From Elusimicrobiota bacterium (GTDB taxonomy: Bacteria; Elusimicrobiota; Endomicrobiia; CG1-02-37-114; JAHJSO01), in NCBI GenBank assembly GCA_043826435.1, contig JBDRQF010000012.1, forward strand, positions 1-14,059: 14,059 bases of DNA, in the 5' to 3' direction. Positions 9,001 through 14,059 of the stretch are shown here, one piece after another. How positions within the stretch are numbered: the first letter of the stretch is position 1; every line of letters begins with the position of its first letter. Position numbers: made by a program.

Positions 9001-12000
9001 AACCGCCGCCGGAATCTTCCCGACGGGGAAAACGCAACTCTTAATTAAAATAGGCGACGAAATTATGTCTTATGACATTGCAGGGACAACCCAGACGCCG
9101 ACAGGTCCCCGTCCTTACTTGAACATAAAAGAGAGGGGTAAATATAATACACCAAAATCGGTACATAACACAGGGGCTTCACTGCGTAAAGTGGATATGT
9201 TTAACTTAACCGATGACCGGGATAAACTAAAACTCATTGTACTCACATTCCCGCAGGCATTGATTCCGACCGAGCAGACATACTTTATCGGCTATGACAT
9301 AGGGGACAATGCCATTGCACAGAATTCATTGGGAGTAAAAATTCCAAATGCCGGCTCAATTGAAGTGCAGCCCCAGGACAAGAAGGAGGTCTCTCCCACC
9401 ATTTTCCTTGAAGATACCAATGAATACGCGGGGTTTGACAAATGCAGGTCATCTCTCATCCAGATTAACCCCGTGAACCTGAACGTCCGTAGTGACAACC
9501 TTGTTACCGGTTCTGCACAGCAGACCACAAAGGACGTGCCGTTGATGCGACTGCGTCTCTGGACGGACAGGAATTATATTACAATAAAACAGATAAATCT
9601 TACACAAATCGGCAGCGTTAAAATTACAGACCCCGCAGGCAACGCAGTCGGTGATTTCTCAAAACTGAGTATCTGGTTGGATGCCCCCACGGCTGCGCTA
9701 CCGTCAGGCAACGGGGCATTCAGTTCTACGGAAGACATACTCATAGGTAGTGCAACGAACAGGGTGGTGCTTGAGGACAACTCCATAATTGACTACACGT
9801 TTGCTTACCAGGGAGTGCCTGTCCCGGGCAGCGGCGGCAAGGGCCTTTTTGTTTCAACCCGGGTTGTGAATATATTTATTACCGCTGATATCGGCGTTCG
9901 TGACCTGGCAAAACAAAACACAGAGGGAGATAAAGCAGGCATAAAACTGAACGGTTTCAGCGACGTTATTATCACCCCTGAAACAGCCGGCTCGGCAGGA
10001 GACAATTCATTCCCGTACAGTTCAGGGGAACTTACAATACTGAGCCAGTATGCGATTGTAGCCCAGCCGTATTCCGTAATCCCCGTAGTGTGGGCGGACC
10101 CGTTCGTAGACGGGTATCCTGCAGTTGATACTAACGGCGACGGCAAGCCGGACAGGGTAATGGTTGACGACGAGGTGTTTATTGACGTCAACGGCGATGG
10201 GGTAAACGATTTGAAAGACCTGAATGGCGACGGCAGGAAAAATGAGATTGACCTGGACGGAGACGGCTTGCACGACATAGACATCAACAGTGACGGATTC
10301 CTGGACATAGACATAAACTATGACGGCTATATAGACCTTATATTGCCTGACAGCAACGGCGACGGCCTCCCGGATATTGACCTTTTTGCAAACGGAACCA
10401 TAGACAATGTAATCCCCGGAAGATGGACGAACAGCCGTCTGAAGACATACGCAAAGTGGGTCTCAACTGCAAACGTACAGAGTTACTATATTGCAGTCGG
10501 CAAAGGACCTGACGACATCAGTGTTTCGGGTCTGTGGTTTGACAATGAAAACAATACCGAGATAACGATGAGCGGGCTTTCACTTGAGGAATTGAAATGG
10601 ACAAAGACCACAGAGAAGAGGATTCTTGAGACCGAAGACCCGAACCCACCGATGAACGAGTACGTGAAACTATATGTTGAGAGTTTTGAGGGTTTTAATA
10701 CACAGGCACAGGGGTATATATATGTCGGTTCAGGCAAGGATGCGGAAATTATGCACTATATATCTGCAGGAACTGAGGAAAAAACGATAGGTACTACAAA
10801 AACCTGGGCTTATTTCTTTAACATTGACGAGAGGAAGTGTTTCGGCACGAATAAGAAAACGCACGAAATCGGCACGGTTGTTTCAAACGCCGTGTATTAC
10901 AAGCGGCTGAAAGCAACAAGCAACCAGGGGGTTGAAGGTCCTGCTGTTCTCATGGCGACGTACAGGGTTGACGTGAATAAACCGTCCGAGCCGTCTTCAC
11001 TGAAGGGCGAGGCGGTTAAGACGAGCGCCGTGCTGGACGAATACCTTATAAAGGTTGAGTGGGACAAATCAGCCGATGACCTGTCAGGCGTGCGTATATA
11101 CGAAATCCAGGAGAGCAAAGACACCGACCCGAGGTGGAACAAGGTTGCAACGTTGCCTTCAAACAAACTCAATATGTCCCGCAGGCAGACGGGAGGCAAT
11201 TACTACTATTACCGGCTCCGTTCACAGGACTGCTCAGGCAACTGGAGCGCATGGTCTGAGATTGTCAGGGTGCAAGTTAAACTGCCCGCTGAAATAATCT
11301 CCGAGGTCTCAAACTATCCCAACCCGCTTAACCTCACAAAACCGGGCGTGAAGCAGGAGACGTACATTACTTATACCCTGAACCAGGACATAGAGGTAAT
11401 CATTACGCTCTATGACCTGCTCGGATACAAGGTCTATGAGTGGAAGTGCCCTGCAGGAGAAAAACACTCGGGGACAGGGAAACCGTTCGTTGATGGGAAG
11501 GGCAAGGGCGGGGCTGCGGGCGTTAACGTTGTGGTCTGGGATGTCAGGAATGAAATCGGAGATACCGTAAGTAAGGGCGGCTATATAGCCCATATAAAGG
11601 TTGGGACGATTGCAACAACGACCCGCAAAATAGGAATTATAAGGTAAGATTTCAGTGCCCCATGTCATTGCGAGGGACGAAGTCCCGAAGCAATCTCGTC
11701 GGCATAATTCAGGTTAATGACTTGTAAACAAAAAATTTTTCAGAAAACCCTTGACAAATTTACAAAAACCGTTTATAATAATACTGGAAAGGATAGGGGG
11801 CTATCCAGACCGAATTAATCCAAGCGTAGTAAAAAGCGTTATAGTTCTTTAAAATGTTCTTAATCATACTGCGAAAAGGCAAACCCTGTTGAAAACAGGG
11901 GGCGCAAAACCAACGGGCCTAAGTTGGAATAGCCAATACGGTGGCCGGGTTGCCGAACAGTATAGTATTTTTTTTCGGCAAACAATGTAACAAAGTTGTA

Positions 12001-14059
12001 AACGTTATATCCCGAAGCCACCAAAAATAAGGTGATTCGGGTTTTTTTATTATGAAAACAATAAAAAACAAAAATTATGGTGCATCCGATTATGGTGGAT
12101 CCGGAGAAAGCACTTTAAACAGTGCAAATGCCATGGTTTATATATTTGCCCTCATTTTGACCCTTCTTGTATCACCCACCTTCAGCCCCCTATTTTCAAA
12201 AGCAACCGGCGGACAGCCGGGACAATTCCTGCAGTGGGCCGCCGGGGCCCGCTCGTTAGGAATGGGTAAGGCCTTTTATGGCGTCTCAGATGATGCAAGC
12301 GCAACTTACTGGAACCCGGCAGGACTTATCCAGTTGGACAGGAATGAGATCGTCGCCCTGCACACAAACCTCTGGGCAGGGACATCATACGATTTCATTT
12401 CTTTTGTTTATCCTACGGCTAGATTGGGCGTTTTTGGAGCGAATATCACCAAGTTAAGAACGGATGGTTTTGAAAAGGTTGAATTTTCCTACAACGAGAC
12501 GACCCAGGAAATTACCTTTAACCCCGGTGGGACGTTCAGCGACGACCAGATGGCTCTGACGCTCGCCTATGGCAGGAAGGTTATGAGAAACATTTCAATC
12601 GGCTTAGCCACGAAACTCCTCCAGAGGACGCTGGACGTTCATACGGACAACATGATAACCTTTGACATAAATTTACTCCAGCAGGGGTTAAACTCACACC
12701 TGCCCGGATTAAAATTGGGTTTCGGGATAAACAACATCTTAACGCAGAGTTTTAACACACAGGACGTTCTACCGATGACATTCAGGTTTGGAGCCGCCCA
12801 CAGGTTCTTACGGGATAAGTTGACGATGGCGTTTGACCTTACAAAAGGGATGAAATCAAACATTAACTGGGCCATCGGCGCCGAATACTGGATGATGAAC
12901 TTTATGGCAATGCGGCTTGGTTTTGACGGTGAAGATGCAATAAGGGAATCAAGCATGGGGCTGGGTTTTAAGTACAGGGATTACGGCTTTGACTATGCCT
13001 TTGCAATGCATGCGATGGGCATATCGGCGTTCAGGTTGAGCGGTTCCTACAAGTTCGGCGCATCGGTAGTCGCTGCCAGGGACTCAACCATCAGACGTAT
13101 AATACATGAAGGGATAGAGGCGTACAGGCGCGGGAATTTTCTCGTTGCATTCAGCCGGCTGGAAAAGGCGTTTGCAGTTGACCCTGCAAACCAGGACGTC
13201 CAGAAGATGACCAGAAAACTCCAGACGATTATTTCCTACATCACGTCTGCTCAGAAGGATACGGAAGAGGAAGGAGGGATACGCAAGGGCGTGGCCGCCT
13301 ATATGGACGACGACATCCCCGGAGCCGTCAGCGCCTTTAAGTACGCCTACTACAAGAACCCGCAGAATGCAAAGGTATTCCAATTGTTGAATGCCCTTGA
13401 GAGAGGGAATAACCTGCCCCTTACCGAGTCCTACAAGGAAGACATTGTTGGTTTTACGATTATTGACAAAAAGATATACGACGCAAGGCAACTGGTTATT
13501 GAGGGCAAATACGACCAGTCCCTCCTGAGGTGCCAGGAAGTCCTGAACCTTGAGCCGAACAACGTAACCGCCCTTGAGATTATGGGCAGCGCCTTCTTTA
13601 TGATGAACCAGAGAGACAAGGCAAAAGAGGTATGGATTAAGGTACTTGAACTTGACCCGACAAGGGAGATGGTCAGGGAGTTTCTTGAGGAGTTAAAATA
13701 ATTCAAAAAACCCTTGAAAAAAATGGGAAAGTATATTATAAGGTATTTTAAGGTAAGGGAAGGAGAAGGCGGCAAATGAAAAGCGGAATAACGTTAAAAC
13801 CTGTGATTGTTTTGCTTGTTTCCATGGCATGCTTTATCTGCCTCCTGCCGGATAGCCGGGCGCAGGAAGAGCAGCCAAAGGATATATCCATATTGTTACT
13901 GGAACAGGAGAGGAAGTATGAAAAGGAACAGGCGGAGTACGTCCAGAAGAACATACTTGACAAGATTCTCGGTGAGGGCAAATCATCGGTGGTAGTGGAC
14001 GTTGAGTTTGAACTGCGCACCACGAAAACGCTCCAGCAGGCGAAGGAATCAAAGGCAGA

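Follow-up and report, generated by a model that had tools for sequence, protein, structure and literature searches.

The stretch of DNA analysed here (the window: 14,059 nucleotides of contig JBDRQF010000012.1 from an Elusimicrobiota bacterium) raises the question of what a c-di-GMP-type riboswitch might do when it is placed neither ahead of a flagellar operon nor ahead of an adhesin gene, but between a giant surface-protein gene and the outer-membrane barrel gene that follows it. An earlier note on this DNA proposed that c-di-GMP gates transcription of the barrel gene and of the FliF/FliG-like gene behind it; this proposal is supported by the aptamer, by a promoter of its own and by a terminator, the gating itself being predicted from folding. 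On balance a PorV/PorQ-like plus FliF/FliG-like operon is probably controlled here by a functional class I c-di-GMP riboswitch, through premature transcription termination and with a predicted OFF sense.

Organization of the locus

The genes and upstream elements of the window, all on the forward strand, are as follows:

2..11647, + strand: giant surface-protein gene g00393, an open reading frame of >3881 aa whose 5' end is cut by the contig
11663..11695, + strand: dispersed 33-nt hairpin repeat, 16 nt past the g00393 stop
11751..11779, + strand: sigma-70-type promoter (-35 TTGACA at 11751-11756, 17-nt spacer, -10 TATAAT at 11774-11779)
12052..13701, + strand: g00394, PorV/PorQ-family outer-membrane barrel of 549 aa, the first gene behind the riboswitch
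13776..14057, + strand: g00395, truncated at the contig end; the 94 aa present are the predicted N-terminus of a FliF-like/FliG(M,C)/TPR fusion

The spacer between g00393 and g00394 (11648-12051) is 404 nt long, as the earlier note had it. That note also ascribed a C-terminal sorting domain to g00393, which stands in part: judged by alignment, the last ~115 residues are a T9SS-type sorting-domain-like tail, which carries an NYPNP motif and aligns (E 6e-14) to a small protein of the FlgD_ig/T9SS-tail type in the relative G039, but Pfam assigns no family to the whole protein, and its last 130 residues match Por_Secre_tail at E 0.67, which is not significant. The protein is 47% identical to a 2504-aa protein upstream of the corresponding riboswitch in the relative G002.

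Like the PorV/PorQ proteins of Bacteroidota type IX secretion (T9SS), g00394 matches the family model NF033709 (E 4.9e-39; 134.8 bits against a cut-off of 90), which bears out its earlier assignment, and it adjoins a cargo gene with a T9SS-style tail. Unlike them, it has a C-terminal TPR region (TPR_2, 1.6e-7), heads an operon with a FliG-domain protein, and falls below the equivalog cut-offs for PorV (NF033710, 55.7 versus 250), PorQ (37 versus 220) and PorV2 (84.7 versus 325); it is therefore filed as PorV/PorQ-like rather than as PorV. From residue 2 onward it is 64% identical to its G002 orthologue.

The 94-residue fragment of g00395 has no family match of its own. It is read as the N-terminus of a FliF-FliG paralogue because FliG_M/FliG_C proteins of 656 aa (G002) and 635 aa (G014) have N-termini that are 45% and 40% identical to it, respectively; the FliG part itself, along with the rest of the operon, is absent from this genome's assembly. 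The FliG_C domains of these orthologues match at 1.5e-26 and 5.5e-29; against the TIGR00207 equivalog model the orthologues stay below the cut-off (123.7 versus 226.7).

Just past g00393, the 33-nt repeat folds into a hairpin (-20.5 kcal/mol in a 55-nt context), has 169 blastn-short matches genome-wide, partial ones included, and in metagenome runs is covered at very high depth with breaks in the contigs; it may serve as a 3' stabiliser or boundary for the cargo transcript. A search of RNA sequencing runs turned up none that contains the stretch; in two metatranscriptome runs coverage is confined to this repeat (11662-11698), 30 nt of the conserved aptamer core and two short, unrelated segments, and has no bearing on expression.

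The promoter reported upstream of the aptamer is present and matches the consensus at 12 of 12 bases, where 0.01 such sites are expected in the shuffled window. Since TTGACA-17-TATAAT occurs at 59 sites genome-wide, as against 2 for a reversed control pattern, the organism uses this consensus, which would place the start of transcription near 11786.

The aptamer

Two features define the ligand-binding domain:

11868..11957, + strand: c-di-GMP-I (GEMM-I) aptamer, RF01051, model positions 1-87 of 87, not truncated
11866..11963, + strand: extended closing helix of the aptamer, read from sequence, in which AUACUG (11866-11871) pairs with CAGUAU (11958-11963)

The aptamer, at the position previously assigned to it, scores 71.7 bits against a gathering score of 35 (E 9.6e-13 for the window, 3.0e-14 for the genome) and is the single RF01051 match in the whole 1.83-Mb assembly. 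Its architecture is of the two-helix type 1 kind: in the RF01051 alignment the first helix, CCCUGUU-GAAA-AACAGGG, is capped by a GAAA (GNRA) tetraloop and the second carries a receptor-like CCUAAG...UACGG. Vc2 of Vibrio cholerae, on which the structure of the class was modelled as its prototype, belongs to the same aptamer family and shares these features. This tetraloop receptor is one base off consensus; a related metagenome contig has the consensus-matching T at 11939, at a weak depth of 2.3. All upper-case positions of the RF01051 consensus (GGCAAA, GCGCAAA, CUAAG and GCCGAA) are matched, with no degraded position.

The expression platform

Downstream of, and overlapping, the aptamer lie three further elements:

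11940..11957, + strand: switching strand, which is the 3' half of the aptamer (minimum-free-energy fold and pair probabilities)
11968..12004, + strand: platform linker, comprising U8 (11968-11975), anti-P1 UUCGGCAA (11974-11981) and a conserved UGUAAC-AAAGU-UGUAAACG (11986-12004)
12011..12048, + strand: intrinsic terminator, comprising CCCGAAGCCACC (12011-12022), a loop (12023-12030), GGUGAUUCGGG (12031-12041) and U7 (12042-12048)

The terminator folds at -14.7 kcal/mol (z -3.1). A hairpin with a T7 run had been noted before the g00394 start codon and is indeed there, though the run ends 3 nt, not 6 nt, upstream of the ATG at 12052; no Shine-Dalgarno sequence is evident between the two. A simple terminator scan of the window missed this element, probably because of its bulge and 8-nt loop, and it was recovered by folding. 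A three-genome leader alignment (this genome, G002 and G004) shows conservation of the U-run and of the outer pairing CCCGAA/UUCGGG; the inner stem changes by covariation, reading CACC/GGUG in this genome, UUUCAA/UUGAAA in G002 and UUUC/GAAA in G004. The linker motif UGUAAC-AAAGU-UGUAAACG likewise forms conserved columns in this alignment, and the U8 run (11968-11975) is a possible pause site.

Two other candidate elements were rejected. The closing helix and U8 (11958-11975) might be read as a first terminator; by eye, the helix is set off from the U-run by 4 unpaired nt, and in G002 and G004 the U-run has no hairpin ahead of it. TGTAAAC as an operator occurs 3 times in the window where 2.5 occurrences are expected, hence no enrichment, and only its three-genome leader conservation stands.

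What couples aptamer to terminator is that both compete for the same nucleotides. In the free leader, GGUGGCCGGG (11940-11949) pairs with the terminator 5' arm (CCCG..GCCACC of 12011-12022) with a probability of 0.95-1.0, and UUGCCGAA (11950-11957) pairs with UUCGGCAA (11974-11981), the two forming a perfect 8-nt inverted repeat (I13). For the outer terminator pairs, the probability averages 0.005 in the full leader, as opposed to 0.989 with the aptamer sequestered, and enforcing the 22 consensus aptamer pairs allows 10 of 10 terminator pairs to form. When the leader is folded stepwise, the 8-bp anti-P1 helix appears once position 11981 has been transcribed and the 10-bp antiterminator once 12022 has been. 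As modelled, then, the antiterminator is built from aptamer nucleotides and is mutually exclusive with both aptamer and terminator. These are secondary-structure calculations, which leave out tertiary contacts and transcription kinetics, and by the same folding the energetic price of holding the aptamer is 8-12 kcal/mol. Binding by Vc2 is described as picomolar (PMC6140456); by our own estimate, affinity of that order could pay such a price. The two closest relatives show the effect less strongly: their equilibrium ensemble retains the terminator without the aptamer being held (0.87 in G002, 0.76 in G004), and the switch there would have to be kinetic.

Proposed mechanism and sense of the switch

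Transcripts would begin near 11786, from the consensus promoter. With little c-di-GMP in the cell the aptamer would not be held, UUCGGCAA would invade its closing strand, and GGUGGCCGGG would then pair with CCCG..GCCACC, blocking the terminator, so that polymerase would continue into g00394 and g00395. When c-di-GMP is high, its binding would lock the aptamer and leave the terminator 5' arm free; the hairpin (12011-12041) with U7 would form, and transcription would end 3 nt short of the ATG. Polymerase reading through from the giant adhesin gene would be gated likewise, the adhesin gene itself lying outside the switch.

The OFF sense is predicted because folding gives antitermination with the aptamer free and termination with it held, and because the closing helix of other lineages contains the start codon or the Shine-Dalgarno sequence. 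Specifically, in the minimum-free-energy folds of G014 and G026 the aptamer-closing helix pairs UUUCCUUC with the Shine-Dalgarno GAAGGAAG, and in 7 distant orthologous leaders, inspected by eye, the AUG lies 2-12 nt past the aptamer, within or beside the closing helix.

The main competing explanation is the opposite, ON sense, whereby ligand would promote read-through and the barrel/rotor-like operon would be made when the cell settles. In its favour, other RF01051 copies in the relatives lie ahead of genes for adhesin-like surface proteins containing NHL, FG-GAP or fn3 domains, and such proteins are often induced by c-di-GMP in other bacteria. A review notes that class I c-di-GMP riboswitches occur in both senses and warns against transferring the sense from one species to another (PMC6366702). 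An ON switch described there, Bc2 of Bacillus thuringiensis, precedes a collagen-adhesin gene and resembles the present RNA in being a class I aptamer that acts on transcription read-through at a surface-protein locus (PMC6366702); it differs in that its sense is opposite to the one predicted here and that it controls the adhesin itself, whereas here the adhesin gene is upstream of the switch and only the partner barrel and rotor-like operon lie behind it. Mechanistically, ligand could free UUCGGCAA to pair with CCGAA of the terminator 5' arm as an antiterminator, a UUCGG/CCGAA complementarity that is readable in the sequence, and the terminator does dominate the ligand-free ensemble in G002 and G004. 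Against this, once the aptamer is sequestered the downstream RNA folds as the terminator (0.989) rather than as the UUCGG/CCGAA helix; the 10-bp antiterminator consumes aptamer nucleotides; and the translational versions hold the Shine-Dalgarno sequence or (by eye) the AUG in the ligand-stabilised closing helix. The ON sense is accordingly considered unlikely, though it is the strongest of the competitors.

The predicted OFF switch finds its closest counterpart in Cd1 (Cdi-1-3) of Clostridioides difficile, a class I riboswitch of OFF sense that is described as lying ahead of flgB and its early flagellar operon (PMC6366702). In both cases a class I aptamer is followed by an intrinsic terminator and the regulated operon encodes motor-type proteins; in Cd1 ligand leads to termination (PMC6366702), which is what is predicted here. 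By contrast with Cd1, the operon here is non-flagellar (a PorV/PorQ-like barrel, a FliF/FliG/TPR fusion and giant proteins), the host belongs to another phylum and is diderm, and OFF is a predicted sense. The terminator also distinguishes this RNA from the class I riboswitches of V. cholerae, which as the review presents them do not act by transcription termination (PMC6366702).

Conservation of the riboswitch-operon linkage

Whether relatives share the arrangement had been left open, and the answer is strongly in its favour. The riboswitch precedes the operon in 11 of the 16 genomes of the class with a strong FliF/FliG-TPR orthologue, and a PorV-like orthologue lies directly 3' of RF01051 in 10 other class genomes (tblastn, 30 loci). 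Across a sample of the phylum (n=151), RF01051 lies 2.9-3.8 kb upstream of, and on the same strand as, a 601-708-aa FliG_C open reading frame in at least 29 genomes with 17 family codes, a count obtained by manual cross-matching of RF01051 and FliG_C positions; at 12 of 17 further loci the PorV-like gene is right behind the aptamer. Five genomes of one related genus keep promoter and operon with the aptamer absent, and riboswitch control is therefore dispensable.

Such loss is also what might be expected if the hairpin and U7 were mainly a constitutive terminator of the adhesin transcript, or the aptamer a decaying relic, with the PorV-like operon not really regulated; that the genome has 1 RF01051 copy for at least 14 PorV-like paralogue matches points the same way. 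Nevertheless a perfect promoter stands between adhesin gene and aptamer, the aptamer is free of degraded positions and its score is double the family cut-off, its sequence and that of the terminator are complementary to each other, and the position before the operon is kept in those 29 or more genomes, which together make this explanation very improbable.

Ligand specificity

The unpaired G before the first helix (GGCAAAC) is presumed here to be G20 of Vc2; A47 (Vc2 numbering) also counts among the conserved ligand-pocket nucleotides. The genome has 4 GGDEF-domain open reading frames above cut-off, the number given in the earlier note, which suggests that the organism makes c-di-GMP. G20 and C92 are assigned ligand-pocket roles in Vc2, and the change of G20 to A is the one pocket difference that separates GEMM-Ib from GEMM-I; some of these RNAs bind both ligands (PMC6140456). 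Sensing of another cyclic dinucleotide, such as 3'3'-cGAMP as in GEMM-Ib, or bispecificity, is thus conceivable but quite improbable given the 4 GGDEF cyclases and the match at every highly conserved RF01051 position, the presumed G20 included. By its sequence the RNA appears to be a genuine, ordinary class I c-di-GMP riboswitch, with predicted ligand binding and a new, deeply conserved gene association.

A rotor-like operon in an apparently flagellum-free host

The make-up of the operon can be read in four relatives (G002, G012, G014 and G039), where the orthologous genes run PorV-like-TPR, FliF-FliG-TPR, a ~1600-aa protein and a ~1000-1250-aa coiled-coil protein. The order PorV-like/FliFG/coiled-coil/FlbD/MotA/MotB that had been claimed is not borne out: MotA, MotB and FlbD families had no match among the scanned operon reading frames of these relatives, which cover part of the 20-kb stretches. 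In this genome MotA and MotB occur instead at paralogous FliG loci on contigs C38 and C33, neither of which has a riboswitch in the genome-wide RF01051 search; the C38 paralogue also matches YscJ_FliF_C and is followed by MotA and then two MotB genes. Compared with the flagellar rotor/stator core (FliF, FliG, MotA/MotB), the g00395 orthologues share FliG_M and FliG_C, but in a single fused polypeptide with a TPR tail, and no stator genes were found in the relatives' riboswitch operon. FHIPEP (FlhA), of the flagellar export gate, has no match in this 96.7%-complete genome, and the host seems to be a groundwater bacterium without flagella. A search for the T9SS translocon with SprA_N (PF14349) gave no match in the genome and was silent on its controls as well.

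Gating of the barrel might switch the display or movement of the upstream adhesin. A bolder and distinctly tentative interpretation, to which only a modest chance is given, is that the PorV-like/FliF-FliG-TPR/giant-protein operon encodes a c-di-GMP-repressed machine of the 'motile' phase. Such a machine would be an envelope motor of the rotor type, working without a flagellum to move or handle the giant CTD adhesins, and a new gliding-type apparatus of Elusimicrobiota, sharing stators from the paralogous MotAB loci.

Literature searches found no paper that joins a c-di-GMP riboswitch with type IX secretion, none on a c-di-GMP-I riboswitch in Elusimicrobiota, nothing relevant on FliG or PorV in Elusimicrobia and, for FliG and MotA with T9SS and CTD, only the Flavobacterium GldLM motor. 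The claim that no riboswitch on a FliG-type motor operon has been described holds only once 'non-flagellar' is added, given the position of Cd1 before flgB (PMC6366702).

Implications

The value of this riboswitch is as a label on an operon of unexplained function. The predicted OFF switch implies a machine that would be made at low c-di-GMP, like a motility organelle; if it is the rotor-type motor suggested above, then the same signal and RNA logic that silence flagella in Firmicutes would silence such a motor here. Riboswitch control by c-di-GMP would also extend to T9SS-style cargo/barrel cassettes. Because a conserved switch of predicted OFF sense sits on the operon, the function of the phylum's flagellum-free FliG systems becomes testable. 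Assays of the leader, whether in vitro or in a surrogate host, do not require the organism to be cultured, and the riboswitch-defined regulon points to the partner proteins.

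A promoter, an aptamer and a terminator within one spacer

Four elements lie between the giant surface-protein gene (g00393) and the gene for a PorV/PorQ-family barrel (g00394), in the order hairpin repeat, promoter, aptamer, terminator.

Features of the spacer (contig positions, strand, description)
11648-12051, +: intergenic spacer, 404 nt, flanked by the giant open reading frame (2-11647) and by the open reading frame 12052-13701
11663-11695, +: 33-nt hairpin repeat, 16 nt past the giant gene's stop; -20.5 kcal/mol within its 55-nt context
11751-11756 and 11774-11779, +: sigma-70 promoter, TTGACA, 17 nt, TATAAT; 12 of 12 consensus bases
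11868-11957, +: c-di-GMP-I aptamer; RF01051 across the whole model, 71.7 bits (cut-off 35), E 9.6e-13
12011-12022 / 12031-12041, with U7 at 12042-12048, +: intrinsic terminator; folds at -14.7 kcal/mol, z -3.1

The co-occurrence of promoter, c-di-GMP-I aptamer and terminator that the earlier note described is thus borne out by search and folding, as is its count of four GGDEF genes in the genome; the uridine run, however, ends 3 nt ahead of the ATG at 12052 rather than 6 nt. Sites of the form TTGACA-17-TATAAT are expected by chance 0.01 times in the window, and the exact consensus occurs 59 times in the 1.83-Mb genome versus twice for a reversed control pattern, so that it is a genuine promoter class of this organism. 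A genome-wide search yields no RF01051 match other than this aptamer, which, judged by its full-length match, is a standard member of that family--that is, the riboswitch itself looks ordinary. In one contig (depth 2.3) of a related groundwater population, position 11939 carries T for C, a change that converts UACGG to the consensus tetraloop-receptor UAUGG.

The hairpin repeat has 169 blastn-short matches in the genome (partial ones included), with near-full copies on contigs C34, C6, C60, C37 and C38; groundwater metagenome runs cover it at a depth of 4700-14000 versus about 225 for its flanks, and contigs break there. Its halves form arrays on C38, one of them between paralogous cargo and PorV-like genes.

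The first hairpin of the leader, GAUAGGGGGCUAUCCA (11792-11807), is followed by CCGAA. A relative (G056, locus L040) has two aptamers in tandem, and the hairpin of the second helix in the first of them is identical to it over 16 nt; the leader hairpin may be what is left of an upstream aptamer that was lost. Between aptamer and terminator (11968-12004), a run of seven or eight uridines and the motif UGUAAC-AAAGU-UGUAAACG are kept in three genera while their flanks vary (also in the leaders of loci L031 and L032); this stretch could be a pause site plus a protein- or RNA-binding site. A copy of TGTAAAC lies ahead of the -35 box as well (11723-11729), but the sequence is not enriched in the window.

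Predicted sense of the switch

In the minimum free energy (MFE) fold of the full leader, the 3' half of the aptamer is paired with downstream RNA: UUGCCGAA (11950-11957) pairs with UUCGGCAA (11974-11981) as a perfect 8-nt inverted repeat, and GGUGGC and CGGG (11940-11949) pair with GCCACC and CCCG in the 5' arm of the terminator. Within the free-leader ensemble, pairing of that arm with the aptamer has probabilities of 0.95-1.0 and the outer terminator pairs of 0.005; when the aptamer is sequestered, the latter rise to 0.989. Stepwise lengthening of the transcript yields a helix competing with P1, the aptamer's closing helix, at 11981 and a 10-bp antiterminator at 12022, and enforcing the 22 consensus aptamer pairs lets all 10 terminator pairs form. 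The leader, as modelled, therefore has the classical OFF layout. Holding the aptamer costs 8-12 kcal/mol by folding, which we estimate to be about the order that tight ligand binding could pay; the class I prototype Vc2 is described in PMC6140456 as binding its ligand in the picomolar range.

Both ON and OFF examples are known among class I riboswitches, and according to PMC6366702 the sense is not to be extrapolated between species. The outer element CCCGAA...UUCGGG-U7 is kept in G002 and G004, with compensatory changes in the inner stem, and G002 has the potential antiterminator GGGUUGC/GCAACCC; among these two leaders the antiterminator appears in one MFE structure, and their equilibrium ensembles still favour the terminator (0.87 and 0.76). 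Hence the thermodynamic argument is strong for the window only.

Translational-type leaders provide a separate line of support. A closing helix that is stabilised by ligand and buries the ribosome site is an OFF design, so that the following leaders support the OFF sense. Those of G014 and G026 lack a terminator, and the aptamer-closing helix pairs UUUCCUUC with the Shine-Dalgarno sequence GAAGGAAG just before the AUG; in the MFE structures of G006 and G009, the strand 5' of the second of two tandem aptamers pairs with GGCAAU just before the AUG (G012 shares that 3' sequence, but its MFE structure is without the helix). By eye, the AUG lies 2-12 nt past the aptamer in seven distant leaders.

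Tandem RF01051 aptamers precede the orthologous operon at six loci: L033 (G012), L034 (G039), L038 (G009), L039 (G006), L040 (G056) and L056 (G153). The first aptamer has its own terminator in G012, G006, G009 and G056; ahead of this terminator lies, in each, a strand of 16-18 nt with complementarity to the second helix of the aptamer. Only a few nucleotides separate the end of the second aptamer from the AUG in G012, G006 and G009; in G039 and G056 the second aptamer has a terminator of its own. On the folding models and the translational-type leaders, we consider OFF the probable sense, given a working riboswitch.

The genes on either side

The 549-aa product of g00394 matches the PorV/PorQ family NF033709 (4.9e-39, 134.8 bits versus a cut-off of 90), falls below the equivalog cut-offs for PorV, PorQ and PorV2, and has a C-terminal TPR region. 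The giant protein g00393 matches no Pfam family. A 129-aa G039 protein, itself a FlgD_ig match (1.3e-9), aligns with the last approximately 115 residues of g00393 at E 6e-14. Against Por_Secre_tail, the family matched by the corresponding small protein of G014, the g00393 tail reaches only E 0.67; the C-terminal sorting domain (CTD) attributed to it is thus backed by homology and not by a direct family match.

The 94-aa fragment g00395 matches no family, and shares 45% and 40% of its residues with the N-termini of a 656-aa G002 protein and a 635-aa G014 protein, respectively, which have FliG_M, FliG_C and a TPR tail. The assembly contains neither the FliG part of g00395 nor the following gene; the operon probably continues on contig C39 (L043, 1-9536), which opens inside a homologue of a coiled-coil protein of about 1000 aa, cut at the contig start. 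Next on C39 are genes for a 1330-aa CHU_C-tailed protein with Ig_Rha78A_N and for a PorP/SprF-like protein with LysM, a cargo/anchor pair in the style of type-B CTDs beside the window's type-A-style pair.

Conservation of the riboswitch-operon association

RF01051 is present in 15 of the 61 genomes of the class (this genome counted). A tblastn search of 30 fetched riboswitch loci finds the aptamer immediately followed by an orthologue of g00394 (39-64% identity) in ten other genomes (G002, G004, G006, G009, G012, G014, G018, G026, G039 and G056), and a weak paralogue at the G003 riboswitch locus. Over 20-kb stretches the orthologous operon reads: one or more riboswitches, a PorV-like protein (about 540-570 aa), a FliF/FliG-TPR protein (about 610-660 aa), a protein of about 1550-1860 aa and a coiled-coil protein of about 900-1250 aa; more distant genomes insert a 120-180-aa T9SS-tail-type protein between riboswitch(es) and PorV-like gene. 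The MotA, MotB and FlbD genes that the earlier note placed in this operon had no match among the operon reading frames scanned in G002, G012, G014 and G039. The 22 proteins scanned behind the remaining RF01051 copies of relatives include NHL, FG-GAP and fn3 surface proteins, additional PorV-like proteins, one TPR protein, one response regulator and several that match no family.

A search with the first 330 aa of the FliF/FliG protein from G002 recovers strong orthologues (212-701 bits) in 15 other genomes of the 61, ten of which have the riboswitch (11 of 16 with the present genome). The five without it (G020, G008, G005, G024 and G016; loci L051-L055) belong to one genus and have nothing within 7-7.5 kb that matches Rfam, even with E values as high as 1, and retain the promoter (GTTGACA...), small CTD gene, PorV-like gene and FliF/FliG gene in synteny. 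Alignment with two congeners that have the aptamer (L035, L036) shows a segment of about 100 nt to be cleanly present in some and missing in others, and the switch has thus been recently lost or gained within that genus.

Among 151 genomes sampled across the phylum, 47 contain RF01051 and 57 FliG_C. Manual cross-matching of the matches listed, which gives a lower bound, finds RF01051 2.9-3.8 kb upstream of a 601-708-aa FliG_C reading frame, on the same contig and strand, in at least 29 genomes with 17 family codes. The PorV-like orthologue begins just past the aptamer in 12 of 17 newly fetched loci, and six of these 12 have a cargo-tail homologue just upstream, as in the window; the layout of cargo tail, aptamer and PorV-like gene recurs in G002, G004 and G056. 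Conservation in relatives, which the earlier note had left open, is thereby established.

Paralogous FliG loci

The two assembled FliG_C genes of this genome, on contigs C38 and C33, each adjoin MotA, and the genome search found no RF01051 at either locus. The C38 locus (L042, 6969-12448) comprises a giant cargo, PorV-like-TPR, FliF_C-FliG, MotA, MotB, MotB, a 604-aa unknown protein and a hybrid histidine kinase. Because FHIPEP (FlhA) has no match in the 96.7%-complete genome, these FliG paralogues are probably not flagellar.

Relation to known riboswitches and implications

In function, Cd1 of C. difficile comes closest: according to PMC6366702 it is a class I, terminator-based OFF switch before the flgB flagellar operon. 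Because Cd1 precedes a flagellar operon, the claim that no riboswitch had been described for a FliG-type motor operon or a type IX-like component is too broad for FliG-type motors in general and holds for non-flagellar FliG operons and T9SS-style components, for which our literature search found no paper involving a c-di-GMP riboswitch. Similarly, of the proposed gating of the PorV-like gene and a motor operon, predicted control of the PorV-like/FliG-like operon is supported, and the MotAB-containing motor operon is not; an effect on the adhesin we only infer.

What is new here is the deeply conserved association of an ordinary riboswitch, predicted to be OFF, with a PorV-like/FliG-like operon. 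If the sense is as modelled, this hints that an unexplained machine would belong to the low-c-di-GMP, motile-type state.
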